A DNA stretch of 62,323 bases from a virus (lineage: Duplodnaviria; Caudoviricetes): positions 1-62,323 of IMG/VR virus record IMGVR_UViG_3300043442_000825. The stretch is one strand, 5' to 3'. Made by a program: the position numbers and the translations under genes. Shown piece by piece: positions 9,470-62,323 of the stretch (positions are counted from its first letter, which is position 1; each line of letters starts with the position of its first letter). The notes beneath the pieces are model-generated. The model was not told the origin of the DNA. It worked only from the letters and a program-made list of their open reading frames with translations, and made no database searches.

Positions 9470-12400
9470 ATGGCCCAACAAACAAATCTCAATGTAGCAC
9501 CGTATTTTGATGACTTTAATCCAAACAATGATTATCACCGAGTTCTTTTTAAACCTGGATATCCAGTCCAAGCTAGAGAATTAACAACTTTACAGTCAAT
9601 TTTACAGAATCAAATTGAAAGATTTGGGCAACATTTTTTTAAAGAAGGTGCAAAAGTAATACCAGGAAATACTGGATATAATGCACTTTATTATGCAATT
9701 CAAATTCAAAATAGTTATCTTGGAGTTCCTGTTGCAGCTTATGTTGATCAATTAGTAGGATCAAAAATAACAGGAAGAACTTCTGGAGTTACTGCAGTTG
9801 TAGACAAGGTTCTTTTACCTCAGGACTCCGAGAGAGGTAATTTAACTTTATATGTAAATTATTTAAGTTCAAACACCCAAAATAATTCAACCCAACAGTT
9901 TTCTGATGGAGAATTATTAGTATCAAATATTACTATTAGTTCGGGTCTTTTAGGAAATACAACTATACCATCCGGAGAACCATTTGCAGTTACTTTGGAT
10001 ACTAATGCGGCATCTGTTGGATCTTGCTTTAATATATCGGAAGGTGTATATTTTATTCGTGGAAACTTTGTAAATGTAAACACAGAAACATTAATATTAG
10101 ACCAGTATTCAAATACACCAAACTATAGAGTTGGATTGTTTATTAGTGAAGAAATAGTTACTTCAGATACTGACGAGGCACTGACTGATAATTCTCAAGG
10201 AAACAATAATTATGGAGCTCCTGGTGCAGATAGATTAAAAATATCAACATTCCTATTTAAGAAAAGTTTAACCGATTTTGATGACAATAATTTTGTTGAA
10301 CTTGCAACAATTGAAAATGGAGTTATTAGATCAAAACAAAATACAACAACTTATAGTTTAATTACTGATGAACTAGCAAGAAGAACTTATGCAGAATCTG
10401 GTGATTATGTCGTTTCACCTTTTGATATTTCAGTAAAAGAATCTTTAAACAATAGAAAAGGAAATAGAGGAGTCTTTGAAAGAGGACAATTTACTTATGG
10501 TGGAGCAACACCAAGTGATAATCTAGCATTATATCAAATATCTCCCGGTAAAGCTTTTGTAAGAGGATATGAAGTTGATTTAGTATCAACTTCATTTTTG
10601 GATGTAGAAAAACCAAGAACCACAAAAACTTTAACAAATCAGTCATTAATTTACAACACTGGTCCAACTTTAAGACTCAATAGAGTTTATGGTGCTCCTC
10701 AAGTTGGTCTAGGTAATACATTTGTTCTAAGTTTGCGTGATGAGCGCGTTGGAGTAAATACCGCATCTGCTGCAGGAAAAGAAATAGGTTTGGCGAGAGT
10801 TTATGATTTTAAACTAGAATCTGGTGCATATAATGCATCAAACAAGAATTTGAATGAATGGCACGTATCTTTATATGATGTTCAAACATTTACAGAAATA
10901 ACCTTAAATAATACAACGTCCTTAACGACACCTACTTATGTTAAAGGTAGTAATAGTGGGTCATCGGCTTTCTTAAAAGATCCTGTTACTGTTGGTGCAG
11001 CTTTAACATTGTATGATGTAAAAGGATCATTTATTCCAAATGAATCACTACTATTCAATGGAGTTGAATCCGGATTAATTGGTGTTGCAGTAACTTCATA
11101 TGGAATACCAAATGTAAAATCTGTATATGGACTAGTAAGTGCAGGTTCAACTTTTAACGCAGATACTATTCAAACTCCTTCATTAAATATTGGAATTGCA
11201 ACGATTAGCTCTTCTTCTAGCGGAGTGAGTACAATAAGAAGTTTAAGTTCGCTTCTCCCAGGAAATATAAAAGTTAATGATATTGTTCAATATACAGATA
11301 CATCAAGATCTGTAGATCCGATTTATGCAAAAGTAACTGGCATAGGAACAACATCAATAGCAGTTACTGGAGTTACTACAGTAACTGGAGTTGCAAATGG
11401 AACTCTACCATCTTCAACATTAAGTGTAACTGATCTAAAAGTTCTTAAAACAAATTTAGAATCATCTTTAGACAATACATTATACACAAAGTTACCAAAA
11501 AATAATATTTCAAATGTAGAAATTACAAACACAGTTTTATCAATCAGAAAGAGATTTACTGTTAATATTTCTGGAAATCAACTATCTGCAAATGTAACTG
11601 CTGGTGCAAATGAAACATTTGCACAATTTACTCCAGAAAGATATTCTTTGGTCAGATCCGATGGAACTTATGAGACATTAACCTCGGACAGATTTGCATT
11701 TATTGCAGGTGGAACACAACTTCAAATTTATAATCTAGGATCTAATGATACTGGTGCAACACTAACAGCAACTTTAGATAAAATTAATCCAAAATCGAAA
11801 GTAAAAAGAAAAAATAGAGTAAAATCAATTTTAGTAGATGCATCAAAATATGAAGCATCGGGTATTGGTGCAACAACATTTAATGATGGTCTAACATATG
11901 GAAATTACCCATATGGAACAAGAGTTCAAGATGAAATTATTTCGCTCAATAGTCCAGACATTATAGAAATACAAGGAATATACGAATCTGCAGATACTAG
12001 TGACCCATCTCCACCAAAAGTGGTTCTTGCGTCAATAACAAGTCCATCCTCTTCAACTTCAGAATTAATTATTGGTGAAGAAATAGTTGGACAAACCAGC
12101 GGTGCAATAGCAATAGTTGCTGAAAAATTAACAGCATCTCAAATTTCATTTATATATAAGAACCAAAACACTTTCAACGAAGGGGAGACTCTTCTATTCA
12201 GAGAAAGTGCAATTCAAGCTCAGGTTGTTACTTTAGATACACCAAGTTTTGATATATCATTTAATTATACGTTTAATAATGGACAATCTGGAACTCACTA
12301 TGGGCATGGACATATTACTAGAAAATCTGATGTATTTGAACCTGTTAGAAAGATAAAAATTTATTTTACTACTGGATATTACGAATCAACTGATGATGGT

Positions 12401-15400
12401 GATATAACTACAGCATCATCATACAGCACTTTTGATTATAACTATGAAATACCGGTAGTTGATAATTATCGTGTAACAGATTTAATTGATATTAGACCAA
12501 GAGTTAAAGACTACTCTGTTTCTGAGGGAAGTCGCTCTCCATTAGAATTTTATGGAAGAAATTTTGATTCTACTGGAAATTCATCAACAAGCACTCTTTC
12601 ATCTGATGAAGAGTTAATTACTACATTTTCATTCTACTTAGGAAGAATTGATAGAATTTATCTAACAAAAGATGGGAAATTGCAAGTTAAATATGGAACT
12701 CCTGCAGAAAATCCAGAAAAACCAGTTTCTGTTGATGATGCATTAGAAATTGGAATAGTATCATTACCACCATATCTTTATTCGCCATCACAAGCTTCTA
12801 TAGAATTTTTAGAGCATAAAAGATATAGAATGGTTGATATTAAACAACTTGAGAACAGAATTAAAAATTTAGAGTATTACACAACATTATCTCTTTTAGA
12901 AACAAATACAGCAAACCTATTTGTTCCCGATTCTGATGGATTGAATAGATTTAAGTCCGGATTTTTTGTTGATAACTTCTCATCATTTTTACCACAAGAA
13001 TCTAGATTAGATGTAAAAAATAGTGTAGACCTTCAAACTAAAGAACTGAGACCAAGACATTATACAACTGCAATTGATTTGATAGAAGGTCCAGTTGTTG
13101 GTTTAGATCCAACAACAGATCTTGCATTTGAACCTGTAGAAGGAATTAATGTTAGAAAAAATAATGATATCTTAACACTCGATTATTCTGAAGTTGAATG
13201 GTTAAAGCAATCTTTTGCAACTAGATCGGAAAGTGTGACACCATTTCTAATTAGTTTCTGGCAGGGAACAGTAGAGTTAACACCAGCATCAGATACTTGG
13301 ATTGATACAACAAGACTTGAAGCAAAGATTATCAATACTGAAGGAAACTACGCAGAAACACTTGCAAATGCAGCAAGAACTTTAAATGTTGATCCACAAA
13401 CTGGATTTGCTCCAACTATTTGGAACGCTTGGGTTACTAATTGGACTGGTCAATCTGTTGTTAATACTACAGCAATTAGAAGAACAACTAATGAGTCCTC
13501 CACATCATGGTGGGGGAGAGCGTTATGGGGAACAGTCACAGATTCAACGATTGAAGATACATTCAGAGAAGTTAGAGATACTGGAGTTCAAACAAGAAAT
13601 GGTGTTAGAACTGTAGTTACTGAGCAGTTTGATAGAACTTCAGTTGGAGACAGAGTTGTTCGTAGAGATCTTGTTCCATACATGAGATCTAGAAACGTAC
13701 AATTTGTATCTAAAAAAGTAAAACCTCTAACACAACTATATGCATTTTTTGATGGAGTTAATGTAACAAAGTATTGTGTTCCGAAGTTACTAGAAATTTC
13801 AATGCTATCTGGTTCTTTCCAAGTTGGAGAGACCGTAGTTGGATATGTACAACAAACTGGATTGGGACAAGGAACTGAAAACGTTTCTGCTAAAATAACA
13901 TTTAGAGTTGCACAAACAAATCATAAAGAAGGTCCATATAATGCTCCATCTTCGGTATACACCCAAAATCCATATAATTCACAGTCTTTATCTGCATCAT
14001 ATTCATCAACATCAACGATATTAAATGTCGACACATTTTCATTATCAAATGCAACTCAAGGTGAGTATAGTGGATGGGTAGAATCTGGTATGTTGCTTGT
14101 TGGTAGAACCAGTCAAGCACAGGCATCAATTACAAATGTACGTTTGATATCCGATTTGTCTGCAACTTTAATAGGTAGTTTTTATATCCCAAATCCAAAT
14201 TTAAATATTCATCCTAGATTTGAAGCTGGAACTAAAGTATTCACTTTAGTTAATGACACCGCAAATAACCAGGATGTTGCATCAACAATTGCTGAAGAGT
14301 CTTTCACTTCAAGTGGAACTTTAGAAACTGTACAAGAAAATATTATTTCTGTTAGAAATGCTAGAGTTGAAAATAAGCAAGTATTTGAAGAAAGAGCAGT
14401 TTCCAGAACAACCGGAAGTCAACTGGTCAGTAGTAGAGTTATTGCACAAACTCAAAGACAAGGTATTGTCGGTTGGTATGATCCATTAGCACAATCATTC
14501 TTAGTCGACAACGAAACTGGTGTATTTTTAACAAGTTGTGATGTGTTTTTTAGAACAAAAGATGATACCGATATACCAGTAACTTTCCAATTAAGAACCA
14601 TGCAAGGTGGTTTCCCAACACAAAACGTGATACCTTTATCAGAAATTGTTTTGGAACCATCCGAAATTAATACTTCTGGGGATGGAAGTGTTGCAACAAA
14701 TATTCAATTTAAAGCACCAATTTACTTAGAAGGTGGTAAAGAGTATTGTATCTGTTTAGCATCTAATTCAACTAAGTATAGTGTTTATATTTCCAGAATA
14801 GGTGAAAACGATATAATTAGTCAAACATTTATTTCCAATCAACCATACTTAGGTTCATTGTTCAAGTCACAAAATGCATCTACTTGGGAAGCAAGTCAAT
14901 GGGAAGATTTGAAATTTACCCTATACAGAGCTGATTTTATTGATAGTGGATCTGTCGAATTTTACAACCCAAACCTAACAGAAGGAAATGGTCAAGTTGC
15001 TAAACTATTACCAAATTCTTTAGGATTTAATTCTAAGAGGGTAAGAGTAAGTCTTGCATCGACTATAAACGATCCTAATTTAAAACTTGGTTATACAATT
15101 ACTCAAGTTGGAACAGGTGCTACAGGAAATTATGTTGGTAGTGCAGGAATTGCTACTGGCAATTTAACTATTACCAATCCAGGAATTGGATATACTCCAT
15201 CATCAGGTCAATTAGTATACAATAACGTGATTCTCTCGAGAATCACTGGAAATGGATCTGGAGCTTTAGCAAATGTAACCATTAATAATGGAGTTGCTAT
15301 TGCAGCAACAATTGTCAGTGGAGGAAATGGATATAAAACTGGCGATGTTGTAGGAATAACAACGTTGGGATCAGTATCTGTTGGTAGAGATGTTAAATTT

Positions 15401-16921
15401 ACAATAGTTTCTATTGCAAATACAAATCAACTTATAATTGATAATGTTCAAGGAGATTTTGCAGTTGGATCTGCAAATACTATTAGATATGTAACTAGTT
15501 CTGGAATAACAACTCTCACATCTACTATTGGTGCTGGTGTTACTATTGGTGTTACTCTCAGTGAGGTTATCACAGAAAGCGATGGTTTACATATTAAAGT
15601 AAATCATAAAAATCACGGAATGTATGCAGACAATAATTTTGTTGTACTTTCTGATGTGGAATCTGATATTAAACCAACAAAATTATCAGTTGCATATGCA
15701 TCAGATTCTATAGGTCCAATTTCCGTTGATGATGCTAGTGAGTTTTCAATTTTTGAGGGAGTTGGAGTTGGAACTACAAATCCAGGATATTTGAAGATTG
15801 GTAATGAAATTATTGAATATACTTCAGTTTCGGGTAATGTAATTGGTGGTGACATTATAAGAGGATCAAATCCAGTTTCATATCCTTTAGGTTCTCAAGT
15901 TTACAAATATGAAAGTAATGGAGTTTCTCTAAGAAGAATCAATAAAACCCACAATCTTAATGATGCAGATATTGATAATGTAGTAGGTTTTGATCATTAT
16001 CACATAAAACTGGATATGTCTACTGATGGAATAGATAGATCTTCTGGAACTGGATACAAAAAACTATATCAAAATCAAACAAAGTCCAGTGGCGGTTATT
16101 CTATCAAGGCATCTCAAAATATTCCGTTTGAAATTATTACACCAATAATTCAAAATGTTACTGTTCAGGGTACTGCACTTAGTGCAGAAGTTAGAACAGT
16201 TACTGGAACAAGTATTAGTGGAACAGAAATTCCATTTACAGATGCCGGATTTGAAACTATCTCAATAAACAATCCAAATTATCTACCATCACCAAGATTA
16301 ATTTGTTCTGAAGTAAATGAAATTGCAAATCTTACAAATGTTCCAGAAAATAAATCTTTAAATATGAGATTAAGACTGGAAACAACAAATTCTTACTTAT
16401 CTCCTGTTGTTGATATTCAAAGGGTAAGCACTATTTTAACAACAAATAGAGTTAACAGTGTGATTACAGATTATGCAACAGATGGTAGAGTAAATTCAAT
16501 CCTGGAGGATCCAACGGCATTCCAATATATTTCTAAAGAAATTTCTTTAGAAACTCCAGCAACTTCTATTAAAATTATTCTAAATGCATACGTAAATTCT
16601 TACTGCGATCTAAGAGGTTTCTATTCAATTAGCGAAAATCCAGGTTTTGATCCAATATTCACACCATTCCCTGGATATGACAATCTAGATACAAAATCTC
16701 AAATAATTTCTTTTGAAGATAGTAATGGAAAATCAGATTCTTATGTAACACCATCTTCGGCATTAGAATTTAATTCTGAACTACTTGATTTTAAAGAATA
16801 TACATTTACTGCGGACAACTTACCATCATTCAGAAATTATAGAATTAAACTTGTTGCAACATCAACAAATCAAGTCTATGTTCCAAGAATTAAAGATTTG
16901 AGAGTTATTGCTCTGGCATGA
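9470..16921 (+). CDS. Large virion structural protein (VrlC/DUF4815-like)
   Basis: N-terminal NLNVAPYFDDF...VLFKPGYPVQARELTTLQSILQNQIERFG, then DPLAQSF and GSLFKSQNASTW motifs; position between gp8 and gp13. Confidence 0.8.
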   Translation: MAQQTNLNVAPYFDDFNPNNDYHRVLFKPGYPVQARELTTLQSILQNQIERFGQHFFKEGAKVIPGNTGYNALYYAIQIQNSYLGVPVAAYVDQLVGSKITGRTSGVTAVVDKVLLPQDSERGNLTLYVNYLSSNTQNNSTQQFSDGELLVSNITISSGLLGNTTIPSGEPFAVTLDTNAASVGSCFNISEGVYFIRGNFVNVNTETLILDQYSNTPNYRVGLFISEEIVTSDTDEALTDNSQGNNNYGAPGADRLKISTFLFKKSLTDFDDNNFVELATIENGVIRSKQNTTTYSLITDELARRTYAESGDYVVSPFDISVKESLNNRKGNRGVFERGQFTYGGATPSDNLALYQISPGKAFVRGYEVDLVSTSFLDVEKPRTTKTLTNQSLIYNTGPTLRLNRVYGAPQVGLGNTFVLSLRDERVGVNTASAAGKEIGLARVYDFKLESGAYNASNKNLNEWHVSLYDVQTFTEITLNNTTSLTTPTYVKGSNSGSSAFLKDPVTVGAALTLYDVKGSFIPNESLLFNGVESGLIGVAVTSYGIPNVKSVYGLVSAGSTFNADTIQTPSLNIGIATISSSSSGVSTIRSLSSLLPGNIKVNDIVQYTDTSRSVDPIYAKVTGIGTTSIAVTGVTTVTGVANGTLPSSTLSVTDLKVLKTNLESSLDNTLYTKLPKNNISNVEITNTVLSIRKRFTVNISGNQLSANVTAGANETFAQFTPERYSLVRSDGTYETLTSDRFAFIAGGTQLQIYNLGSNDTGATLTATLDKINPKSKVKRKNRVKSILVDASKYEASGIGATTFNDGLTYGNYPYGTRVQDEIISLNSPDIIEIQGIYESADTSDPSPPKVVLASITSPSSSTSELIIGEEIVGQTSGAIAIVAEKLTASQISFIYKNQNTFNEGETLLFRESAIQAQVVTLDTPSFDISFNYTFNNGQSGTHYGHGHITRKSDVFEPVRKIKIYFTTGYYESTDDGDITTASSYSTFDYNYEIPVVDNYRVTDLIDIRPRVKDYSVSEGSRSPLEFYGRNFDSTGNSSTSTLSSDEELITTFSFYLGRIDRIYLTKDGKLQVKYGTPAENPEKPVSVDDALEIGIVSLPPYLYSPSQASIEFLEHKRYRMVDIKQLENRIKNLEYYTTLSLLETNTANLFVPDSDGLNRFKSGFFVDNFSSFLPQESRLDVKNSVDLQTKELRPRHYTTAIDLIEGPVVGLDPTTDLAFEPVEGINVRKNNDILTLDYSEVEWLKQSFATRSESVTPFLISFWQGTVELTPASDTWIDTTRLEAKIINTEGNYAETLANAARTLNVDPQTGFAPTIWNAWVTNWTGQSVVNTTAIRRTTNESSTSWWGRALWGTVTDSTIEDTFREVRDTGVQTRNGVRTVVTEQFDRTSVGDRVVRRDLVPYMRSRNVQFVSKKVKPLTQLYAFFDGVNVTKYCVPKLLEISMLSGSFQVGETVVGYVQQTGLGQGTENVSAKITFRVAQTNHKEGPYNAPSSVYTQNPYNSQSLSASYSSTSTILNVDTFSLSNATQGEYSGWVESGMLLVGRTSQAQASITNVRLISDLSATLIGSFYIPNPNLNIHPRFEAGTKVFTLVNDTANNQDVASTIAEESFTSSGTLETVQENIISVRNARVENKQVFEERAVSRTTGSQLVSSRVIAQTQRQGIVGWYDPLAQSFLVDNETGVFLTSCDVFFRTKDDTDIPVTFQLRTMQGGFPTQNVIPLSEIVLEPSEINTSGDGSVATNIQFKAPIYLEGGKEYCICLASNSTKYSVYISRIGENDIISQTFISNQPYLGSLFKSQNASTWEASQWEDLKFTLYRADFIDSGSVEFYNPNLTEGNGQVAKLLPNSLGFNSKRVRVSLASTINDPNLKLGYTITQVGTGATGNYVGSAGIATGNLTITNPGIGYTPSSGQLVYNNVILSRITGNGSGALANVTINNGVAIAATIVSGGNGYKTGDVVGITTLGSVSVGRDVKFTIVSIANTNQLIIDNVQGDFAVGSANTIRYVTSSGITTLTSTIGAGVTIGVTLSEVITESDGLHIKVNHKNHGMYADNNFVVLSDVESDIKPTKLSVAYASDSIGPISVDDASEFSIFEGVGVGTTNPGYLKIGNEIIEYTSVSGNVIGGDIIRGSNPVSYPLGSQVYKYESNGVSLRRINKTHNLNDADIDNVVGFDHYHIKLDMSTDGIDRSSGTGYKKLYQNQTKSSGGYSIKASQNIPFEIITPIIQNVTVQGTALSAEVRTVTGTSISGTEIPFTDAGFETISINNPNYLPSPRLICSEVNEIANLTNVPENKSLNMRLRLETTNSYLSPVVDIQRVSTILTTNRVNSVITDYATDGRVNSILEDPTAFQYISKEISLETPATSIKIILNAYVNSYCDLRGFYSISENPGFDPIFTPFPGYDNLDTKSQIISFEDSNGKSDSYVTPSSALEFNSELLDFKEYTFTADNLPSFRNYRIKLVATSTNQVYVPRIKDLRVIALA

Positions 16922-19663: not shown

Positions 19664-20665
19664 ATGTTTGAATATTTTTATCACGAAATCCTAAGAAGAA
19701 CTGTTATTGCATTTGGTACATTATTCAATAATATATCAATACAACACACTAATAGTTCTGGTCAGGTTACAAGCATATTAAAGGTTCCTCTTGCATATGG
19801 TCCTACTCAAAAATTTCTTGCAAGATTAGAGCAGTCCCCAGACTTAAACAAATCTACGGCAATAACTTTACCCAGAATGTCTTTTGAATTCACTGGGTTA
19901 GTTTATGATGCTTCTAGAAAAGTTACAACAACTCAAACTTTTACTACAAAAGATCCAACAAATGGATCTGAAACTAAAAAGGCATATATGCCAGTTCCAT
20001 ACAATATGCAATTTGAACTGAGCATTATGTCAAAATTAAATGATGACGCACTACAAATTGTGGAACAAATTTTACCATATTTTCAACCATCTTACAATTT
20101 GACGGTTGAATTGGTAGATTCAATTAATGAAAAAAGAGATATTCCCATTGTTCTCGAAAACATTACAATGCAGGATGATTATGAGGGAAATTTCACAACA
20201 AGAAGAGTTCTTTTATACACATTAAGATTTACCGCAAAAACTTATCTGTTTGGTCCTGTTTCTTCCGCTACCAAAGATATTGTCAAAAAAGTTACTCTCA
20301 ATTATCTTACTGGGGCTAGTAGAGATAATAATACGAGAGAAGTTATATATTCCGCAGAACCAAGAGCGATTAAAAATTACACTGGAACTGTTTTAACAAC
20401 ATTATCCAGTGATATATCAACAACGGATACAATAATTACAGTAAATGATGCATCAGCAATATCAGTAAACACATACCTTGATCTTGATGGTGAAGAAGTT
20501 TATGTGAGATTAAAGTCTGGTAACAATTTAACTGTAGATAGAGGAAGAGATGGCACTGCAATAACATCACATTTAACAGGTGCTGAGATTAAATCAATAA
20601 CAACCGCAGATAATGAACTTATACAAGAAGGTGATGATTTTGGTTTTAGTGGAACTATATCATGA
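19664..20665 (+). CDS. gp15: Tail sheath stabilizer/completion protein gp15
   Basis: FYHEILRRTVIAFGTLFNNI, VPLAYGP, LPRMSFE and QIVEQILPYFQP motifs. Confidence 0.92.
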   Translation: MFEYFYHEILRRTVIAFGTLFNNISIQHTNSSGQVTSILKVPLAYGPTQKFLARLEQSPDLNKSTAITLPRMSFEFTGLVYDASRKVTTTQTFTTKDPTNGSETKKAYMPVPYNMQFELSIMSKLNDDALQIVEQILPYFQPSYNLTVELVDSINEKRDIPIVLENITMQDDYEGNFTTRRVLLYTLRFTAKTYLFGPVSSATKDIVKKVTLNYLTGASRDNNTREVIYSAEPRAIKNYTGTVLTTLSSDISTTDTIITVNDASAISVNTYLDLDGEEVYVRLKSGNNLTVDRGRDGTAITSHLTGAEIKSITTADNELIQEGDDFGFSGTIS

Positions 20666-21096
20666 AGATGACTAAAAAATTCGATGATTTAAACAACACG
20701 TTCAACGTTGAAGGTGAAATAGTACCCGTAGAAAATACTGATGCTATAGAAAAAATAGAAAAAATATCATCGAGTATGGATGATATTAAAAAAGATTATG
20801 AGTATACAAGGGGAAATTTGTATTCAATTATTGAAAAGGGACAAGAAGCAATCAACGGAATTCTTGAACTTGCTCAAGAAAGTGAAATGCCAAGAGCATA
20901 TGAAGTAGCTGGGCAACTTATAAAAAATGTTGCCGATGCTACAGACAAATTAATGGATTTACAAAAAAAATTGAAAGAAGTTGAAGAAGAAAAACAATCA
21001 AAAGGACCAACAAACGTTACAAATGCTCTTTTCATAGGTTCTACCGCAGAATTATCAAAGATTCTCAAACAACAATCTAAAGATGAAAACGTTTAA
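20662..21096 (+). CDS. gp16: Terminase small subunit gp16
   Basis: DYEYTRGNL...PRAYEVAGQLIK...NALFIGSTAEL motif; synteny. Confidence 0.9.
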   Translation: MKMTKKFDDLNNTFNVEGEIVPVENTDAIEKIEKISSSMDDIKKDYEYTRGNLYSIIEKGQEAINGILELAQESEMPRAYEVAGQLIKNVADATDKLMDLQKKLKEVEEEKQSKGPTNVTNALFIGSTAELSKILKQQSKDENV

Positions 21097-21238
21097 ACAG
21101 TTTCAAGAAGAGTGGACTAATAAATATAAAAAGAGTATCGATTGTTCGAATCCAAAAGGATTTTCTCAGCGTGCCCATTGTGCCGCAAAAAGAAAAAGAG
21201 CAAGAGGTGAAGAAACTAAGTCTAAACCAGTTGAATGA
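21083..21238 (+). CDS. 51-aa basic protein with capsid-targeting-like N-terminus (not in ORF track)
   Basis: MKTFKQFQEEWTNKYKKSIDCSNPKGFSQRAHCAAKRKRARGEETKSKPVE. Overlaps the gp16 end and is coupled to the next ORF by ATGA. Confidence 0.7.
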   Translation: MKTFKQFQEEWTNKYKKSIDCSNPKGFSQRAHCAAKRKRARGEETKSKPVE

Positions 21239-23031
21239 AAACACCAAAATTTTCCCACTTAACACCACATTTAAAAGGAAAACAACATCAGTTGGATCCT
21301 AATCTTGATCTCAAACAATCAATTAAACATGCGTCAATTCAGTATGTTGATTGGGATAATGATGGTGATGTTGATGAATATGATAAAAAACCAAAATTAG
21401 TTCCAGATGAAAATCCCCAAGCAGACTTTGGAACAGTATCTAAAAAATTAATTTCAAAACAAAAGGGTGAAATAAAACATACTAAAAGAGGTATAGCATA
21501 TGAAGATTTGAGAAACTGGTTTGATAAAGATCATCCAGAAGGTAATTGGAAAAGATTTAATACTAAAGGAGAAGCAGTTGGTCCATGTGCCCGTGAACCA
21601 GGAGAACCTAAACCAAAATGCTTATCAAATGAAAAAGCAGCAAGTATGTCCAAATCACAAATTGCTGCAGCAGTAAAAAGAAAGCGAGGAAAAGATCCAG
21701 TAGCAGATCGTCAAGGTAAAGGAGGAAAACCAATTATGTCTTCAAATAAAATTGGTGAAAATTTTGAAAATTCTTTACCCGATTGGGAAGGACACATATA
21801 CAGTGGGGAAAAAAGATATTGTCCAAAATGTGCAAAAATGGAATATCAAAAAGAATGTAGATATGGTCCAAAATATTGGGCACTATATTCATCCCCAATT
21901 GGTCCATCATCCGAACAAGGAAAAGCAGATCTTGCAAATATTGCCCCAACAAATGAAGAGAAGGATCATGAGTTTTCAATGGCACGTTCGGAAATTTCCA
22001 CAATTGTGAACGCAGCTAGAAGACTCAAAAAGAAAATGAAGGGAGAAGGTAATATTGAAGCATGGGTTCAATCAAAAATTACCAAGGCAGCAGATTATCT
22101 TGATACTGCCGCAGATTATGTTGAAAGTGGAGAGCATAAAGTTGATGAAGCATGTTGGAAAAAGTATAAGCAAGTTGGTCTAAAGAAAAAAGGTAATAGA
22201 ATGGTTCCAAACTGTGTTCCTGAGGAAACAGAATACATTGAAGAAAAAAATCAACCAACAAATCCAAAACTGTGGTCTAGAGCAAAAGCACTTGCTAAGC
22301 AAAAATTTGATGTGTATCCAAGTGCATATGCAAATGGATGGGCATCAAAATGGTACAAGTCAAAAGGTGGCGGATGGAAGTCTGTAAGTGAGCAGACTAT
22401 TGAAGACTTAAATGGAAATACTTTTGCCGAAGTTATTGATATTATCAAACCAGAACCAATTAAGGGATTTAAATCTCAAATTGAAGAAATGGCAAGAGTT
22501 GACTCTAAAAATGGAAACTTAATGATGGTTGTTGCCATGTGGAGAGGAAAAACTTATGCACTCAAGATATTTTTCCCACAAGTAAAACTACCAAACAGAA
22601 AAGAAATTGAAGATCAAATTCAAAAAATTTATCCAGGTGCCAAACTAGTTTATTCTAAAGTTTCCGAATGTGAACCTGGACAATCATTTCTATATGCTGG
22701 AGGGTCTGCGGCAAAACCTGGTCCAAGTAACAAATACATTAAACCAATGGGAGAAGAAGTAGAACTTGAAGAAGATTGGCAAAAAGTCAATCGTCAAGAT
22801 AAAACTGATGGATTAAGTCCTGCTGCAGTTAAAGCATATCGCCGCGAAAATCCAGGTTCAAAACTTCAGACCGCAGTAACTGAGAAAAAACCAAAAGGAA
22901 AAAGAGCAAAGCGTCGTGCTAATTTCTGCCGTAGAATGAAAGGAATGAAGTCTAAACTGACTTCGGAAAAGACTGCAAGAGATCCAGATTCAAGAATTAA
23001 TAAAGCACTACGTCGTTGGAGGTGCAGATAA
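21235..23031 (+). CDS. Modular basic hypothetical protein (putative processed head-cargo polyprotein)
   Basis: 598 aa made of short K/R/W/C-rich modules separated by acidic xxE linkers. Confidence 0.8.
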   Translation: MKTPKFSHLTPHLKGKQHQLDPNLDLKQSIKHASIQYVDWDNDGDVDEYDKKPKLVPDENPQADFGTVSKKLISKQKGEIKHTKRGIAYEDLRNWFDKDHPEGNWKRFNTKGEAVGPCAREPGEPKPKCLSNEKAASMSKSQIAAAVKRKRGKDPVADRQGKGGKPIMSSNKIGENFENSLPDWEGHIYSGEKRYCPKCAKMEYQKECRYGPKYWALYSSPIGPSSEQGKADLANIAPTNEEKDHEFSMARSEISTIVNAARRLKKKMKGEGNIEAWVQSKITKAADYLDTAADYVESGEHKVDEACWKKYKQVGLKKKGNRMVPNCVPEETEYIEEKNQPTNPKLWSRAKALAKQKFDVYPSAYANGWASKWYKSKGGGWKSVSEQTIEDLNGNTFAEVIDIIKPEPIKGFKSQIEEMARVDSKNGNLMMVVAMWRGKTYALKIFFPQVKLPNRKEIEDQIQKIYPGAKLVYSKVSECEPGQSFLYAGGSAAKPGPSNKYIKPMGEEVELEEDWQKVNRQDKTDGLSPAAVKAYRRENPGSKLQTAVTEKKPKGKRAKRRANFCRRMKGMKSKLTSEKTARDPDSRINKALRRWRCR

Positions 23032-23345
23032 TGAAATCCTTTAAACAGTTTCTTTCAGAAAATATCAATATTTCCGGAGATTTCAATGGAAATCTTTATG
23101 TAAATAGTTCTGATATTCAATGCGAACCAGTTAAAGAATCCTTTATTGCTGATGTGGTTTGGGAAGGAAAATTATATAGAATGGAAGTTGAGGGGGTTAT
23201 GCTATCAAAAAATGAGTTAGCGGAGCAGTTGCAATCAGAATATCCTGGAGCAATTGTCCACAACGTTTATCCATTGGCACAAAATTCTTTAAAGATTAAA
23301 AGTGCTCAAAGATATAGACCAGAAAGTTTAACATGGGGTGATTAA
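23031..23345 (+). CDS. Hypothetical protein with capsid-targeting-like N-terminus (MKSFKQFLSE)
   Basis: ATG overlaps the upstream stop (TAATG), which favours it over the track's start at 23016. Confidence 0.75.
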   Translation: MKSFKQFLSENINISGDFNGNLYVNSSDIQCEPVKESFIADVVWEGKLYRMEVEGVMLSKNELAEQLQSEYPGAIVHNVYPLAQNSLKIKSAQRYRPESLTWGD

Positions 23346-23348
23346 TTT

Positions 23349-24788
23349 ATGGCTCAGTGGAATATAACCACTCAAGATTATTTAAATCAAGAGAGGAGTT
23401 TATTTGAAGTTGTTGGTGTTGCATCAAGTGATGGTCAAATAATTAGTGATCAAAATCCATTTCCAGTTACTGGAAATATTGGAATACAAACTGGAACTTA
23501 TGTAACGATTAATCCAGATACAACAGCACTGGATGCTTTTGGTAGGCAAAGAATTTCAGAACCATTTACTCTTGGGGATTATAAGCATCTTTATGCAATT
23601 GATACTAACTTTATAGACAGCGTTTCTGGTGCAGGTTCTACATTATCATTTATATCAAACCAAGCAGCAGCAAGATTGCAAACAGGTATTGGAAGCACTG
23701 CATATTGTGTTCATCAAACAAAGGCATATCATCACTACCAACCAGGAAAGTCCCAACTGATTTTTAGTTCTTTTAATTTCTATGCACCTCAACAAAATGC
23801 AACTAAAAGAACTGGATACTTTGATGATAGAGATGGAATATACCTAGAACAAGTTGGATTAAGCACCTCCGATGGTATAAATGCTGGTATAGGTACGTAT
23901 AACTGGGTTATCAGAACATTCACAAGTGGAATTGCAACAGAAACCAGAATTCCACAATCTCAGTGGAACAAAGATAAATGTGATGGAACTGGAGAATCAG
24001 GATTTAATATTGATTTCACAAAAACTCAACTTATGTTCATTGATTTTCAATGGTTAGGTGTAGGTAGAGTTCGTTGCGGTTTTGCTCACGACGGAAAATT
24101 AATTTCTGCTCACGAATTTTTACATTCCAATAATAATTCAAAAGTTTATATTTCAAATCCAAACCTTCCGGTTCGTTGTGAAATAAGAAATACTGCAGTA
24201 GGTGTCGGAGCATCATTTGACCAAATTTGTTCTACAGTTGCAAGTGAGGGAGGATATACAGAAAGTGGTGTTGATTTTTCTCACACAATGTTGAGCACAA
24301 GGGTAGTTCCCACTCCCGGAGGAACAGAACTCCCATTAATTGCAATTCGTCTTAAAAATAGTTATCAAGGATATCCTAATAGAATGTCTGTTAGATTAAA
24401 TCAATTATCAATGTATGCAGAAACAAATAGCGTTGTTTTTAAAATAGTTAAGTTGCCAGGATCTGCTTATATTGGATTGACAACTTTAGGGCAAGGCACT
24501 ATTTGGACTTCTGCTTCTAATAACAGTGGGGTTGAATATTGTGAAAATGCAACAGTATATGATGATGGCGATGAGTTTGCTTCAGGTTATGTTCCATCCG
24601 GTGCATCACAAAACTCGTTATCTCCAGTTTCTTCTGGATCTCTTACTGCAGCAAAGAAAAATATTATTGTTCAAAACATTGATTCAACTGATTCCGAAAT
24701 CTACGCCATTATTGTAAGAACATTATCGACTAGTGTAGGTGCAGGTGCTAACGTGGCAGCAGCAATTCAGTGGAGAGAGATTTACTAA
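23349..24788 (+). CDS. Putative virion structural protein
   Basis: 479 aa, G/S/T-rich beta-type composition with GIGS/GIGT motifs like the tail proteins; lies in the late operon. Confidence 0.6.
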   Translation: MAQWNITTQDYLNQERSLFEVVGVASSDGQIISDQNPFPVTGNIGIQTGTYVTINPDTTALDAFGRQRISEPFTLGDYKHLYAIDTNFIDSVSGAGSTLSFISNQAAARLQTGIGSTAYCVHQTKAYHHYQPGKSQLIFSSFNFYAPQQNATKRTGYFDDRDGIYLEQVGLSTSDGINAGIGTYNWVIRTFTSGIATETRIPQSQWNKDKCDGTGESGFNIDFTKTQLMFIDFQWLGVGRVRCGFAHDGKLISAHEFLHSNNNSKVYISNPNLPVRCEIRNTAVGVGASFDQICSTVASEGGYTESGVDFSHTMLSTRVVPTPGGTELPLIAIRLKNSYQGYPNRMSVRLNQLSMYAETNSVVFKIVKLPGSAYIGLTTLGQGTIWTSASNNSGVEYCENATVYDDGDEFASGYVPSGASQNSLSPVSSGSLTAAKKNIIVQNIDSTDSEIYAIIVRTLSTSVGAGANVAAAIQWREIY

Positions 24789-24791
24789 TTT

Positions 24792-26444
24792 ATGGCAAAT
24801 TCTAATGATGTTTATCTTGGCAATCCGTTACTAAAAAAAGCAAATACTCCGATTGAATTTACTCAAGAACAAATTATTGAGTTTGTTAAGTGTAAAGATG
24901 ATCCTGTGTATTTTGCTAAAAATTATGTAAAAATTGTAACTCTTGATCATGGATTACAACCATTTAGGATGTATCCATTTCAAGAGAAACTTGTCAATAG
25001 GTTTCACCAAAACAGATTTAACATCTGTAAGATGCCTAGACAGACAGGTAAATCGACCACAGTAGTGTCCTTCCTACTCCACTACGCGGTGTTTAATGAC
25101 AACGTTAATATAGGTATCCTAGCAAACAAAGCAGCAACCGCAAGAGAGCTCCTAGACAGGTTACAGACAGCTTATGAAAACCTACCAAAGTGGATGCAAC
25201 AAGGAATTATCTCCTGGAACAAAGGTTCTTTGGAATTGGAGAACGGAAGTAAAATCTTGGCTGCTTCTACTTCTGCTTCTGCAGTTCGTGGTATGTCATT
25301 CAATATTATATTTTTGGACGAATTTGCATTCGTCCCAAATCATATTGCAGACGACTTCTTTAGTTCAGTATATCCAACGATTTCTTCGGGTAAATCAACG
25401 AAGGTAATTATTGTTTCCACCCCTAAGGGTATGAATCATTTTTACCGCATGTGGCATGATGCAGAACGCGGTAAAAATGAATACATCTACACAGATGTTC
25501 ATTGGTCGGAAGTTCCGGGAAGAGATGAAGCATGGAAAGCACAAACAATTGCAAACACTTCGGAGCAGCAGTTTAAAGTTGAGTTTGAATGTGAGTTTTT
25601 AGGATCCGTAGATACTCTTATTGCACCAAGTAAACTACGAAGTTTAGTTTATGATCACCCATTAAAGAGAAATGCTGGTTTAGATGTATATGAAGAAGTT
25701 CAAGAAGAACATGATTATGTAATGACAGTTGACGTTGCCAGAGGAGTAAGTGAAGACTATTCTGCATTTGTTGTCACAGATATAACAAACTTTCCACATA
25801 AAATTGTGGCGAAGTATAGAAATAATGAAATTAAACCAATGCTATTCCCAAATATTATTTTTGAGGTGGCAAAAAATTATAACTCGGCGTATATCCTATG
25901 TGAAGTAAATGATATTGGAGATCAGGTAGCATCTCTTCTTCATTACGACTTAGAGTATCAGAACGTTTTGATGTGTTCAATGAGAGGTAGAGCAGGACAA
26001 ATAGTTGGTCAAGGTTTTTCTGGAAAGAAAACCCAACTTGGCGTAAAAATGTCCAAAACAGTTAAAAAGATTGGATCTCTTAATCTTAAAACTCTTATAG
26101 AAGAAAATAAATTAATATTTAATGACTATGAGATAATTTCAGAATTAACAACTTTTGTACAGAAGCATAATTCATTTGAGGCAGAAGAGGGGTGTAATGA
26201 TGACTTAGCAATGTGCTTAGTCATCTATGCCTGGTTAGTTGCTCAAGATTACTTTAAAGAACTAACTGATCAGGATGTAAGAAAAAGAATATATGAAGAG
26301 CAAAAGAATCAGATAGAACAAGATATGGCACCATTTGGATTTATTGTCGATGGTATAGATGATTCTAGTTTTGTTGATAATAGTGGTGATCGTTGGTTTA
26401 CCGACGAATATGGTGATATGGCATATATGTGGGAATATAGATAA
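24792..26444 (+). CDS. gp17: Terminase large subunit gp17
   Basis: Walker A PRQTGKST, Walker B IIFLDEFAF, coupling motif VSTPKG, nuclease motifs VDVARG and NDDLAM. Confidence 0.97.
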   Translation: MANSNDVYLGNPLLKKANTPIEFTQEQIIEFVKCKDDPVYFAKNYVKIVTLDHGLQPFRMYPFQEKLVNRFHQNRFNICKMPRQTGKSTTVVSFLLHYAVFNDNVNIGILANKAATARELLDRLQTAYENLPKWMQQGIISWNKGSLELENGSKILAASTSASAVRGMSFNIIFLDEFAFVPNHIADDFFSSVYPTISSGKSTKVIIVSTPKGMNHFYRMWHDAERGKNEYIYTDVHWSEVPGRDEAWKAQTIANTSEQQFKVEFECEFLGSVDTLIAPSKLRSLVYDHPLKRNAGLDVYEEVQEEHDYVMTVDVARGVSEDYSAFVVTDITNFPHKIVAKYRNNEIKPMLFPNIIFEVAKNYNSAYILCEVNDIGDQVASLLHYDLEYQNVLMCSMRGRAGQIVGQGFSGKKTQLGVKMSKTVKKIGSLNLKTLIEENKLIFNDYEIISELTTFVQKHNSFEAEEGCNDDLAMCLVIYAWLVAQDYFKELTDQDVRKRIYEEQKNQIEQDMAPFGFIVDGIDDSSFVDNSGDRWFTDEYGDMAYMWEYR

Positions 26445-31569: not shown

Positions 31570-32121
31570 ATGGCTCATAGACCAGTTGGGGCAGGTTCCT
31601 CATTTAGTTTTGTAGCAGGTGCTGCCACTACATCATCTGCTTTTTCTGTACAATCAAGTGTTCTGCGAGTTGTTGCCGTTGGTGCATCGGCACATGTTGC
31701 AGTAGGAGCAACTCCTACTGCAACAAATACTGATTATTATGTTGCACCCGGAGAATCTGTAACACTGGGTTTAACTAAAGCATCAAACAGAGTTGTTGGT
31801 GTTACAACAGGAACAACAACAATTGTCACTGTTCCAGAAGGAACTCAAGTTCCCTTTGGAGTTGGTGATTATGTTTCTTTAGTTTCTGCGGCTCAAACAT
31901 ATTATAATTTTACACATCAAGAAGTATTATCTGTTAACACTTCTTCTGGAATTGATGGATACTATCAAACAAGAATGACGGTTAATTATAATTCTTCTGG
32001 AATTGTAACAGCATTTTCTTCAAGAGATGCTTCCGTTACTCTTTCAAATAAAGTTTCCGCATATGGGTTAGGTTCAGGAATACTTCATTTCCAACAAGTA
32101 CAAATTTCAGGACAAGCATGA
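31570..32121 (+). CDS. Putative virion structural protein
   Basis: 183 aa, V/T/S/G-rich; has its own late promoter at 31540-31546. Confidence 0.65.
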   Translation: MAHRPVGAGSSFSFVAGAATTSSAFSVQSSVLRVVAVGASAHVAVGATPTATNTDYYVAPGESVTLGLTKASNRVVGVTTGTTTIVTVPEGTQVPFGVGDYVSLVSAAQTYYNFTHQEVLSVNTSSGIDGYYQTRMTVNYNSSGIVTAFSSRDASVTLSNKVSAYGLGSGILHFQQVQISGQA

Positions 32122-32771
32122 TGAAACTAATCAGAGAGGAGATCGAAAAGGTTGAAGTTCTTACCGAAAAGGTAGGCAATCAGACAAAACTTTATATTAA
32201 GGGTCCTTTTCTTCAAGCAGAATGCGTTAACCGTAATGGGCGCATGTATCCAATGCAAATTATGGAGCGTGAAGTAAAGCGTTACACTGAACAGTATGTT
32301 CAAAAAGGACGTGCTCTTGGAGAACTTGGGCACCCAGATGGTCCAACCGTAAACCTAGACAGAGTATCACATAAAATTGTGGATCTTTGCCGTGAAGGAA
32401 ATAACTTCATTGGTAAGGCACAAATTTTATCAACTCCAATGGGAAAAATTGCAGAATCTCTTCTTAAGGATGGAGTGACTCTTGGAGTTTCTTCTCGTGG
32501 TATTGGATCTTTAAGAGAAAATAACAAAGGATATAAAGAAGTTGGTGAAGACTTCATGCTTGCAACTGCTGCAGATATTGTAGCAGATCCTTCCGCACCA
32601 GATGCTTTTGTTCAAGGAATCATGGAAGGAAAGGAGTGGGTATGGGATGGTGGCATCTTAAGAGAAAAAATTGCAGAAAATACTAGACGTAAAATTAACA
32701 CTTTAGTTGACCAAAGACTTTTGGAAGACTATAAGTTGAGTTTATTCAATGAGTTCTTAAACTCATTGTAA
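32118..32771 (+). CDS. gp21: Prohead protease gp21
   Basis: NRNGRMYP, ALGELGHP, GVSSRGIGS and DIVADPSAPDAFV motifs. Confidence 0.96.
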   Translation: MMKLIREEIEKVEVLTEKVGNQTKLYIKGPFLQAECVNRNGRMYPMQIMEREVKRYTEQYVQKGRALGELGHPDGPTVNLDRVSHKIVDLCREGNNFIGKAQILSTPMGKIAESLLKDGVTLGVSSRGIGSLRENNKGYKEVGEDFMLATAADIVADPSAPDAFVQGIMEGKEWVWDGGILREKIAENTRRKINTLVDQRLLEDYKLSLFNEFLNSL

Positions 32772-34010: not shown

Positions 34011-35423
34011 ATGTTCCATTCCGAGCATCTGCAGGAAAAGTGGGCACCTCTCCTCAATTATGAGGGTCTGGATCAAATCAAAGATTCACATCGTAGAGCT
34101 GTAACCGCTGTCCTGCTCGAGAACCAAGAAAAATTCCTCAGAGAGGAGCAAGCATTTAATGTTGGAAATCTTTCCAACCTGATGGAAGGACCAACCAACT
34201 CAGTTGGAAACGGTGGATACACCGGTGCAGGTGGTCAAACCGTTGCTGGTTTCGATCCTGTTCTGATTTCACTCATCCGCCGTTCAATGCCTAACCTGGT
34301 CGCTTATGACCTGGCTGGCGTTCAACCAATGAGTGGTCCTACTGGACTCATCTTCGCAATGCGTTCGAAGTATAAGACGCAAGGCGGAGCTGAAACCTTC
34401 TATGATGAAGTTGATACCGCATTCTCCGGTCAGGATAGTGCATTCAACAACACTGCTGGATGGAGTGATGCTGGCGCTGGTATCGGTACAACCGTTCAGG
34501 CTGGCAGCAATCCTTCAGTTCTAAACCCTGTTGCTACCGCTACTTCGACCGCGTATAACGTTGGTCAAGGTATGAGAACCGACCTTGCAGAAAAGCTTGG
34601 TGACGGTACTGAGGGTGAGTTCAACGAAATGGCTTTCTCAATCGAGAAGGTCACTGTTACTGCTAAGAGCCGTGCTCTGAAAGCAGAATACAGCCTCGAG
34701 CTTGCACAAGACCTGAAAGCAATCCATGGTCTGAATGCTGAAGCGGAACTCGCAAACATTCTCTCAACTGAGATTCTTGCTGAGATCAACCGCGAAGTTA
34801 TCAGAACCATCTACAAGGTTGCTGAACAGGGCGCTGTACAAAACGTTGCAACTCCTGGCGTATTTGACCTTGATGTTGACTCCAACGGTCGTTGGTCAGT
34901 TGAGAAGTTCAAGGGTCTTCTGTTCCAGATTGAGAGAGATGCTAACGCTATTGCTCAAAGAACTCGTAGAGGAAAGGGCAACATCATCATGTGCTCTGCT
35001 GACGTTGCTTCAGCACTGACCATGGCGGGTGTTCTAGATTACACCCCTGCCCTCAACGCTAACCTCAACGTTGATGACACTGGTAACACCTTTGCTGGTG
35101 TTCTCCAAGGTAAGTATCGTGTTTATATCGATCCTTATGCTGCTAACCTGACTTCAGGTAATGCAACACCAGGTAACCAGTACTATGTTGTTGGTTATAA
35201 GGGTTCTTCACCTTATGATGCAGGTCTGTTCTATTGCCCATACGTTCCTCTCCAGATGGTACGTGCTGTTGGCGAGAACACCTTCCAGCCAAAAATTGGC
35301 TTTAAGACTCGTTATGGTATGGTTGCTAACCCATTTGCTGAGGGAACCACTGTTGGTGAAGGTCGTCTTCTTGTTAACGCTAACCGCTACTACAGAAGAG
35401 TTGCTGTTAAGAACCTCATGTGA
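34011..35423 (+). CDS. gp23: Major capsid protein gp23
   Basis: GVQPMSGPTGLIFAMRS, KSRALKAEYSLELAQDLKAIHG and FQPKIGFKTRYG motifs. Confidence 0.98.
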   Translation: MFHSEHLQEKWAPLLNYEGLDQIKDSHRRAVTAVLLENQEKFLREEQAFNVGNLSNLMEGPTNSVGNGGYTGAGGQTVAGFDPVLISLIRRSMPNLVAYDLAGVQPMSGPTGLIFAMRSKYKTQGGAETFYDEVDTAFSGQDSAFNNTAGWSDAGAGIGTTVQAGSNPSVLNPVATATSTAYNVGQGMRTDLAEKLGDGTEGEFNEMAFSIEKVTVTAKSRALKAEYSLELAQDLKAIHGLNAEAELANILSTEILAEINREVIRTIYKVAEQGAVQNVATPGVFDLDVDSNGRWSVEKFKGLLFQIERDANAIAQRTRRGKGNIIMCSADVASALTMAGVLDYTPALNANLNVDDTGNTFAGVLQGKYRVYIDPYAANLTSGNATPGNQYYVVGYKGSSPYDAGLFYCPYVPLQMVRAVGENTFQPKIGFKTRYGMVANPFAEGTTVGEGRLLVNANRYYRRVAVKNLM

Positions 35424-62073: not shown

Positions 62074-62323
62074 ATGAAGAGTTTTTCTAGATTTTTAACA
62101 GAAGCAACCCAATCGCAAGCAGCGATGCAAGCGAAAAAACTTGGATATACTGGGGACGGTCACGGTGGATGGTTAGACCGCTCTGGTAAATTAGTTGCAA
62201 GAACGGAAAAGGGTAAACTAAAATTTACTAGTGGGAAACAAGCAAAGGGTCAAGAAGAACCTGCAGCACAATCGCAACAACCCGCTGCTGCTCCATCTCA
62301 GGCACTTGCACCAGCACAAGTCC
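62074..62323 (+). CDS. 3'-truncated protein with capsid-targeting-like N-terminus (MKSFSRFLTEA)
   Basis: Open from ATG 62074 to the window end; late promoter ATAAATA at 62035-62041. Confidence 0.75.
   Translation, partial: MKSFSRFLTEATQSQAAMQAKKLGYTGDGHGGWLDRSGKLVARTEKGKLKFTSGKQAKGQEEPAAQSQQPAAAPSQALAPAQV

Follow-up and report, generated by a model that had tools for sequence, protein, structure and literature searches.

What is a protein of 598 residues, built from small and dissimilar units, doing between the two terminase genes of a tailed phage? The question is raised by a 62,323-nucleotide stretch of viral DNA (hereafter the window; Duplodnaviria, Caudoviricetes; IMG/VR record IMGVR_UViG_3300043442_000825), whose gene content is that of a T4-like marine myovirus. 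An earlier interpretation made from the letters alone (the sequence-only reading) had suggested that this gene, the target of the present analysis, encodes a polyprotein from which many small basic peptides are released during head maturation by gp21, the prohead protease. Our analysis suggests that the target is a precursor that is packaged into the prohead and from which gp21 releases about 6-8 small proteins, most of them basic; to this reading we assign a probability of roughly 0.6.

21235..23031, + strand: target gene, nine-module chain N-A-Z-H-C-P-T-B-D, 598 aa plus stop

The target is modelled as a chain of small folded modules

The target protein has a mass of 67.9 kDa, an isoelectric point (pI) of 9.5, 14.2% Lys and 10 Cys. 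An AlphaFold model built from a 66-sequence alignment has a mean predicted local distance difference test score (pLDDT) of 56 and a predicted template modelling score (pTM) of 0.26. Within it, confident islands at residues 103-152, 191-236, 249-301, 306-330, 339-383, 425-485 and 513-598 are separated by stretches with pLDDT below 50 (1-102, 153-190, 237-248, 302-305, 331-338, 384-424 and 486-512). Because of this alternation the target is, as modelled, a chain of folded units and not an integrated fold; the single integrated domain that had been named as the contrary outcome is not what the model returned. Nine modules could be defined by hidden Markov models (HMMs):

21247..21420 (aa 5-62), + strand: module N, acidic loop of DxDxDG type (DWDNDGDVDEYD)
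21505..21750 (aa 91-172), + strand: module A, basic, Cys pair C118/C129, AYE/D in front (a slash marks a junction, here and below)
21814..21909 (aa 194-225), + strand: module Z, RYCPKC..EC, Zn-ribbon-like
21964..22137 (aa 244-301), + strand: module H, helical hairpin, DHEFSMAR..AWVQSKITKAADY
22153..22221 (aa 307-329), + strand: module C, beta-hairpin CW..PNCV, VDE/A in front
22255..22392 (aa 341-386), + strand: module P, PTNPKLW..YPSAYANGW..GGGW
22396..22458 (aa 388-408), + strand: module T, TIEDLNGNTFAEVIDIIKPEP, VSE/Q in front
22492..22698 (aa 420-488), + strand: module B, beta-beta-alpha-beta, pLDDT about 80-85
22774..23028 (aa 514-598), + strand: module D, DUF6321 (PF19846), net charge +20, pI 11.4

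The modularity described by the sequence-only reading therefore stands, whereas its count of about eight does not, the beta-beta-alpha-beta unit at 420-488 and the short unit at 388-408 having been overlooked. All of the motifs that it quoted are present in the translation, including DWDNDGD at aa 39-45, LRNWF..PCAR..PKC, CWKKYKQVG..VPNCVP, DWQKVNR..FCRRM..RRWRC and those given above for modules Z, H and P, as are its acidic linkers AYE (88-90), TNEE (239-242), KVDE (302-305), YIEE (334-337), QIEE (415-418) and VELEE (509-513). Module N is near-invariant in close homologues although its AlphaFold pLDDT is below 40.

Pfam recognizes DUF6321 alone on the target, at the C-terminus (E 3.7e-13; aa 521-595), with 50.4 bits placing it in the family against a cut-off of 28.5. 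At module P, relatives give a weak match to DUF5872. Seventeen PHROGs families match the target, one of which (phrog_727) spans aa 83-597 while the others cover single stretches. Foldseek returned 0 matches for the target in the PDB at E <= 0.001, and a VIA-align comparison with 48,161 chains, well tested for the parts 421-486 and 547-598 only, reached a best Z of 5.0, inside the tool's stated noise; in these searches a convincing relative of solved structure emerged for none of the modules. The DUF6321 part retrieved only other DUF6321 clusters from the ESM Atlas. T7 Gp2, phi29 p6 and phi29 p56 were considered as look-alikes of module B; the resemblances are weak and are not used as evidence.

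In one relative, P0245, module P is interrupted between ..DVYP and SAYANGW.. by an intein-like insertion of ~240 aa (residues about 311-552), which has a Cys first, a TxxH-like block and an Asn at its end followed by Ser. No Pfam family matches it at E <= 0.001 and its nature as an intein is unconfirmed; if it is one, it would mark a functionally critical site in module P.

A spaced hydrophobic-x-Glu motif precedes the modules

T4 gp21 cuts after L/I-X-E (PMC9026906; statements from this review, here and below, come from the parts of its text that were found), in agreement with the (L/I)xE specificity given in the sequence-only reading. The target has four canonical L/I-x-E sites only, all of which sit in low-pLDDT linkers:

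21751..21759 (aa 173-175), + strand: IGE, directly 3' of module A
22237..22245 (aa 335-337), + strand: IEE, canonical site ahead of module P
22480..22488 (aa 416-418), + strand: IEE, site ahead of module B
22765..22773 (aa 511-513), + strand: LEE, directly ahead of DUF6321

Of the linkers named in the sequence-only reading, AYE has Ala at P3, VDE has Val there and TNEE has Asn. Among 120 close homologues, [LI]xE follows module A in 120/120 and precedes module P in 116/120 and module B in 39/120, Val or Met frequently standing in place of Leu/Ile ahead of B. Residues at P1, P2 and P3 were counted in distinct 12-residue windows upstream of module starts:

Ahead of module B, n=144: Glu at P1 in 143; V/I/L/M/F at P3 in 143
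Ahead of module P, n=139: Glu at P1 in 136; L/I at P3 in 124
Ahead of module A, n=125: Glu at P1 in 104; A/V/I/L/M at P3
Ahead of module D, n=194: Glu at P1 in 141, Ala in 40, Pro in 10; P3 mixed

When the windows of these four modules are pooled, 602 in all, Glu stands at P1 in 524 and Asp in 1, while P2 varies freely (Glu:Asp 163:96). A strict P1 Glu beside a free P2 matches the specificity reported for T4 gp21; in the T4 capsid-targeting sequence (CTS), Asp at position 10 prevents processing (PMC9026906).

The spacing of the motif is specific. When 1,889 junctions were reduced to a non-redundant set of 281 ten-residue windows differing at more than 5 of 10 positions, L/I/V/M/F was found at -2 of Glu in 236, compared with 98 +- 8 in within-window shuffles (z 17; 0 of 2000 shuffles as high as observed). 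Spacing -1 is depleted (z -3.9), spacing -4 is neutral, and spacing -3 shows a mild enrichment (z 5.6) of the kind that Glu-Glu doublets should produce. Motif density, measured per 100 residues in 148 representative-level proteins, reaches 8.4 in the last 10 residues ahead of a module (z +19.6 vs shuffles) and is 0.8 within modules (z -3.9) and 2.4 in the remaining sequence not assigned to a module; the figure for 13 other large window proteins is 1.8 (z 0). In the non-redundant windows [LIVMF]xE lies within 8 residues of the module start for A in 39/51, C in 36/45, P in 13/13, B in 28/28 and D in 36/51. The expectation that module boundaries in homologues coincide with xxE linkers is accordingly borne out for A, C, P, B and D, and weakly so at Z, H and T.

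Putative head-targeting leaders end where modules begin

The proposed processing enzyme and a capsid protein with the corresponding site are encoded in the window, and window gp22 is a T4-type scaffold.

32118..32771, + strand: prohead protease gp21, the proposed processing enzyme (Peptidase_S77, E 3.4e-39)
34011..35423, + strand: major capsid protein gp23, LME/G (E59)

Window gp23 shares 38% identity with T4 gp23, and its ..SNLME/G (E59) aligns with ..SFLTE/A (E65) of T4, where the gp23 propeptide has 65 residues (PMC9026906). The LME-G previously noted at the expected position in gp23 is thus aligned with the T4 maturation site.

T4 ipII and ipIII start MKTYQEFIAE/A (T4 record), and their first 10 residues are the capsid-targeting sequence, in which positions 4 and 7 are important to targeting, and 8 and 10 to processing (PMC9026906). 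Exactly three ORFs (open reading frames) of the window fit a loose leader pattern, and all three begin MK[ST]F..F..E, in close resemblance to the T4 ipII/ipIII sequence:

21083..21238, + strand: 51-aa ORF, leader MKTFKQFQEE/W.., then a Cys-paired basic module (K)
23031..23345, + strand: 104-aa ORF (phrog_1742), leader MKSFKQFLSE/N.., then a paralogue of target modules T and B (BLASTP E 2e-5; HMM B E 0.003)
62074..62323, + strand: third leader ORF, open at the window end, MKSFSRFLTE/A

Two of these flank the target, the stop codon of the 51-aa ORF overlapping the target start codon (ATGA), and the ~100-aa neighbour in the phages S-SRM01, S-SCSM1 and Sf-CH8 has the same leader. In short relatives the leader ends exactly at the module start, e.g. 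MKSFKQFVNE/DLRKWF (P0208, on a 169-kb contig), with further junctions of the forms MKTFKQYIKE/DLRKWF and MKKLSDFISE/RCWPGHK; about 50 proteins begin MKRLKDFLE/GRCW or a close variant, and the leader is also met in P0181 and P0221. For module A, this leader end coincides with the AYE/D junction of the chain. The point at which the leader ends in short relatives is thus the very junction that bears hydrophobic-x-Glu inside chains.

In S-SRM01 and P0274 the K module forms part of the chain as an in-frame fusion. How K is arranged was surveyed in the 29 of 79 related IMG/VR loci that have near-full-length matches: a separate leader+K ORF (51-52 aa) occurs in 10/29, with the 4-nt ATGA overlap in 9 of these; K is fused to the chain, without a leader, in 3/29; and a downstream leader ORF is found in 12/29. 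A frameshift that would link the 51-aa ORF with the target was considered and rejected, the overlap being native (9 loci) and the true fusions (3/29) lacking a leader. Chains that begin with N or K have no leader, leaders accompanying the stand-alone small proteins. This restriction suggests that the chain has its own route into the core, possibly via module N, which may be the chain's own core-targeting region.

A further leader protein was seen in Synechococcus phage S-SM2, where SSM2_108 (142 aa; L004:3285-3713) consists of a leader, a copy of the mature gp23 N-terminus and then a K module. In its gp23-like part, which begins directly past the leader's Glu, 24/31 residues are identical to window gp23 aa 57-87, a layout that independently marks the gp23 cut position.

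Modules are gained, lost and re-ordered at the linkers

The family is large. Word-indexed searches gave 7,456 matches at E <= 0.001 of 8,000 scored candidates among proteins of similar length and 7,228 of 8,000 candidates among shorter ones, and when representatives at 50% identity were searched exhaustively, 7,751 were matched at E <= 0.001 and 597 at E <= 1e-30. In cultured phages (tblastn), matches were found in 305 records, chiefly cyanomyoviruses, none of which spans 80% of the query.

The HMMs of the nine modules were scanned on 388 proteins, made up of database-search relatives and five proteins translated from cultured phages; since this sample was picked by similarity to the query, its proportions do not carry over to the family as a whole. 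The 388 relatives comprise 121 distinct architectures with permuted module order. The query's own order accounts for 87 and A-P-D for 67, and others include C-A-P-D, H-A-C-P-D, P-C-Z-H-D and T-C-H-B-D. Inverted pairs are frequent: H precedes P 152 times and follows it 30 times, and C precedes P 155 times and follows it 15 times. When 120 close homologues are aligned with MAFFT, the indels lie in the linkers. Module gain, loss and re-ordering thus take place exactly at the linkers, the behaviour that the sequence-only reading had singled out for checking, and together with the low pTM these data uphold its beads-on-a-string architecture.

DUF6321 is present in 339 relatives; it is the final module in 337 and ends no more than 6 residues from the C-terminus in 330. 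Modules also occur singly: viral proteins of 44-57 aa give one module match each, and DUF6321 is a stand-alone ORF of 83-84 aa in 3/3 podovirus loci inspected:

L008:2459-2713: stand-alone DUF6321 ORF of P-SCSP1k
L009:2483-2734: stand-alone DUF6321 ORF of HTVC034P
L010:2483-2734: stand-alone DUF6321 ORF of HTVC115P

This ORF lies directly 3' of the capsid gene in P-SCSP1k and HTVC115P and amid small non-structural genes in pelagiphage HTVC034P. The stand-alone ORFs fit the picture of autonomous modules; chains were seen in those T4-like phages that were inspected. Some relatives (954-1124 aa) carry enzyme domains N-terminal to A-P-(C)-D modules: a Zeta_toxin-like P-loop kinase in P0268, P0292 and P0374 (E 4.7e-08 to 6.8e-11), and, in P0291, a glucosaminidase together with a putative metallopeptidase (DUF6782), neither of which reaches its Pfam cut-off. 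These domains link the family to the concept of 'polyvalent proteins'.

Weighing the precursor reading and its alternatives

Several observations tell against processing of the target by gp21. The target has no N-terminal leader, starting MKTPKFSHLTPHL (MKTPKFSHL) with its first Glu at or after residue 48, and the canonical motif occurs at just 4 of its sites. [LIVMF]xE within 8 residues of the start is found in only 16/30 windows for module Z, 16/40 for H and 9/23 for T, and ahead of DUF6321 P1 is Ala in 40/194 and Pro in 10/194 windows, with P3 frequently Glu or Gln. The windows share descent, so that the z-scores overstate their independence; the HMM starts were set just past the acidic linkers of the query, which favours a nearby Glu; and the 388 relatives were selected by likeness to the query. 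Given this shared ancestry and the adjoining linkers, the strongest argument from the motif is that several unrelated modules are preceded by the same spaced motif with a strict P1 Glu. The S-SCSM1 virion proteome, for its part, was obtained by shotgun analysis with filter-aided sample preparation (FASP), which gives no fragment sizes (PMC9602691, in the text found).

These points bear on three other explanations. The target could be an uncut or end-trimmed multidomain virion protein of the polyvalent kind, its modules acting jointly on one polypeptide that travels with the DNA and the motif being kept for another reason, e.g. as a linker-to-domain cap or a favoured recombination joint. The missing leader and the several module boundaries without the motif would agree with this, as would the relatives with a Zeta_toxin-like kinase (P0268, P0292, P0374) or with glucosaminidase and DUF6782 (P0291), enzyme domains that are typical of polyvalent proteins (PMC5512222, in the parts of the text found). 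The motif is nevertheless spacing-specific, stands ahead of unrelated folds and coincides with the end of a T4-like leader in short relatives, and its P1 is Glu and practically never Asp while P2 is free, a pattern that neither a recombination joint at the DNA level nor an acidic linker of generic kind would create; we therefore regard an uncut protein as unlikely. The cut-site evidence itself would also fit a sacrificial component of the prohead core, which helps to build or size the core, is cut by gp21 like T4 gp22, gp67 and gp68, and leaves the head in pieces, so that the modules are not cargo. Cyanomyoviruses have no gp67 and gp68 (PMC2984593, in the text found), and the core proteins of T4 are cleaved to several fragments, most of which leave the head (PMC9026906). 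Set against this are modules that are conserved folded units with paired Cys and recur as stand-alone genes, podoviruses included, a hypervariability (121 architectures in 388) unlike that of a size-determining scaffold, and an S-SCSM1 homologue whose annotation labels it a protein of the mature virion, all of which make such a role quite improbable.

A DNA-binding protein that helps packaging or late gene expression without belonging to the virion, and whose gene merely lies between the terminase genes, is highly improbable in our view. It would account for the location between terS and terL, for the strongly basic DUF6321 (net +20) and for the HTVC034P ORF amid small non-structural genes, but the gp16-gp17 interval is a known variable insertion hot spot (PMC3037559, in the text found), so the position of the target says little. 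Moreover, its neighbours begin with head-targeting leaders, the annotation of the S-SCSM1 homologue is that of a virion protein, and two podoviruses, P-SCSP1k and HTVC115P, have their DUF6321 ORF just 3' of the capsid gene.

The locus and its counterparts in cultured cyanophages

The window carries, in sequence, the neck and sheath-stabiliser genes, terS, terL, sheath, portal, gp21, gp22 and gp23, and of all its DNA matches in the phage collection the best is to terS of S-SM2 (80% identity). The placement of the target (21235-23031) between the terminase genes is correct; besides the target, the terS-terL interval holds three further ORFs, namely the 51-aa and 104-aa ORFs described above and one of 479 aa.

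20662..21096, + strand: terS, small terminase subunit (gp16; PF11053 E 6.4e-07; phrog_445 E 2e-55)
23349..24788, + strand: 479-aa protein, phrog_1645 'virion structural protein'
24792..26444, + strand: terL, large terminase subunit (gp17; Terminase_6N E 7.3e-25)

S-SRM01 and Sf-CH8 share the order terS, chain, ~100-aa protein, virion structural protein, terL, of which S-SM2 and S-SCSM1 show variations. The S-SCSM1 chain, SSCSM1_29 (517 aa), matches query aa 388-597 with 42% identity (E 1e-36); it is the top structural match in BFVD and bears the annotation label 'virion protein'. Shotgun mass spectrometry of the S-SCSM1 virion identified 45 proteins (PMC9602691). The cluster of the S-SM2 homologue, T4-GC119, is a hypothetical protein according to Sullivan 2010.

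The T4 late promoter TATAAATA has 4 matches in the window, against 5.97 expected by chance, and none lies close to the target gene. One late-promoter-like motif is found at 31313, upstream of the gene (31570-32121) for a 183-aa DUF7243 protein; this gene lies between the portal and gp21 genes, the place of T4 gp67/gp68. Two giant ORFs lie 5' of the neck genes, at 1-7896 (2631 aa, open at the window start) and 9470-16921 (2483 aa).

A proposed route from precursor to delivered proteins

We infer prohead entry, the cuts, retention of the pieces and injection as follows. The nine-module chain would be made late and incorporated into the prohead core, where gp21 would cut it after the Glu of the hydrophobic-x-Glu motifs ahead of the modules, the likely cuts being after E90, E175, E305, E337, (E386), E418 and E513. 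The outcome would be about 6-8 pieces, mostly basic and with masses of 3.8-14.8 kDa; these would remain with the DNA in the head and probably pass into the host along with it, as T4 internal proteins do. The predicted pieces are:

aa 1-90: 10.3 kDa, pI 8.8
aa 91-175: 9.3 kDa, pI 9.8
aa 176-305: 14.8 kDa, pI 5.7
aa 306-337: 3.8 kDa, pI 8.7
aa 338-418: 9.1 kDa, pI 9.4
aa 419-513: 10.7 kDa, pI 9.0
aa 514-598 (DUF6321): 9.9 kDa, pI 11.4, net +20

The 'many small basic peptides' foreseen for this gene therefore describe most of the predicted pieces, whereas 176-305 would be acidic.

T4-like cyanophages are among the most abundant viruses of the ocean, and to our knowledge the T4 internal-protein/CTS system has been studied almost exclusively in coliphages. 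Tentatively, and with a good deal of reserve, the family may be a combinatorial arsenal delivered from cyanophage capsids, in which shuffled polyproteins, loaded by a leader or by a region of the chain, are released by gp21 and injected as host-takeover or anti-defence effectors. Such an arsenal would comprise dozens of autonomous mini-proteins in a repertoire of at least 7,751 clusters at 50% identity, to which the larger relatives add a kinase, a glucosaminidase and a peptidase, and the T4 internal-protein system would then be an ancient conserved delivery platform and not a coliphage curiosity. A conserved grammar of leader and protease site would mean that small proteins are delivered into Prochlorococcus and Synechococcus at infection, as a large and fast-evolving set forming an unrecognised class of virion contents. 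It would also give a functional lead for thousands of marine viral hypothetical proteins including DUF6321, DUF5872 and DUF5661, and it points to a possible natural tag with which foreign proteins could be brought into cyanophage heads.

In the literature searched we found no printed description of a cyanophage module chain with gp21-type linker sites. DUF6321 gave no literature under that name; on capsid targeting in cyanophages nothing was found beyond the T4 review (PMC9026906), where, in the parts found, cyanophages appear once, in the reference list; and the P-SCSP1u cryo-EM paper is silent on the DUF6321 ORF in the text found.

Comparison with known systems

The nearest likeness is to the T4 internal proteins, namely IPI, IPII and IPIII (and Alt), which are likewise small, basic and internal to the head, as the pieces predicted here would be. 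They carry a 10-residue leader ending in L/I-x-Glu that is removed by gp21, and similar leaders are found on the ORFs flanking the target; their gene content, like that of the target family, is hypervariable between related phages. Their sizes of about 8, 10 and 20 kDa (PMC9026906) compare with 3.8-14.8 kDa for the predicted pieces. The T4 proteins are, however, encoded by separate genes with a leader each, whereas the target family strings up to nine modules together with internal sites on a chain that has no leader, and homology of the target to IPI, IPII or IPIII was not detected, no internal-protein family being matched in Pfam (E up to 0.1) or PHROGs (E up to 0.01). T4 gp22, gp67 and gp68 are also single polypeptides that receive several L/I-x-Glu cuts inside the prohead (PMC9026906), but they serve in scaffolding or in size determination, and most of their fragments are lost from the head; in this they are unlike chains of conserved, shuffled, autonomous folded modules.

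Polyvalent proteins, found in phages and conjugative elements (Iyer et al. 2017, PMC5512222), combine 2-15 domains per polypeptide by combinatorial shuffling, compared with nine modules in the target, and their delivery together with the DNA and the proteolytic release of their parts have been proposed. That release was attributed to built-in zincin peptidases, while the motif described here matches a prohead serine protease; moreover, the target consists of mini-modules only, with no enzyme domain in Pfam, enzymes being confined to the larger relatives. The text of that paper makes no mention of cyanophage, Synechococcus phage or Prochlorococcus.

In giant phages (SPN3US, phiKZ-like), a gp21-related prohead protease cuts many internal head proteins after Glu; the processed proteins are mostly large single proteins from which a propeptide is trimmed, and shuffled mini-module chains have not been described there. 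The cleavage motif of these phages has a small residue at P3. In SPN3US, eight head proteins are cleaved (PMC7411985, in the text found).

The working principle proposed for the target is that of RNA-virus polyproteins, in which one ORF yields several products through cleavage by a viral protease at short linker motifs. There is no homology between the two systems: here the protease comes from a separate gene and would act inside the assembling capsid, and whereas RNA-virus polyproteins yield replication and capsid proteins, the products of the target would be cargo.

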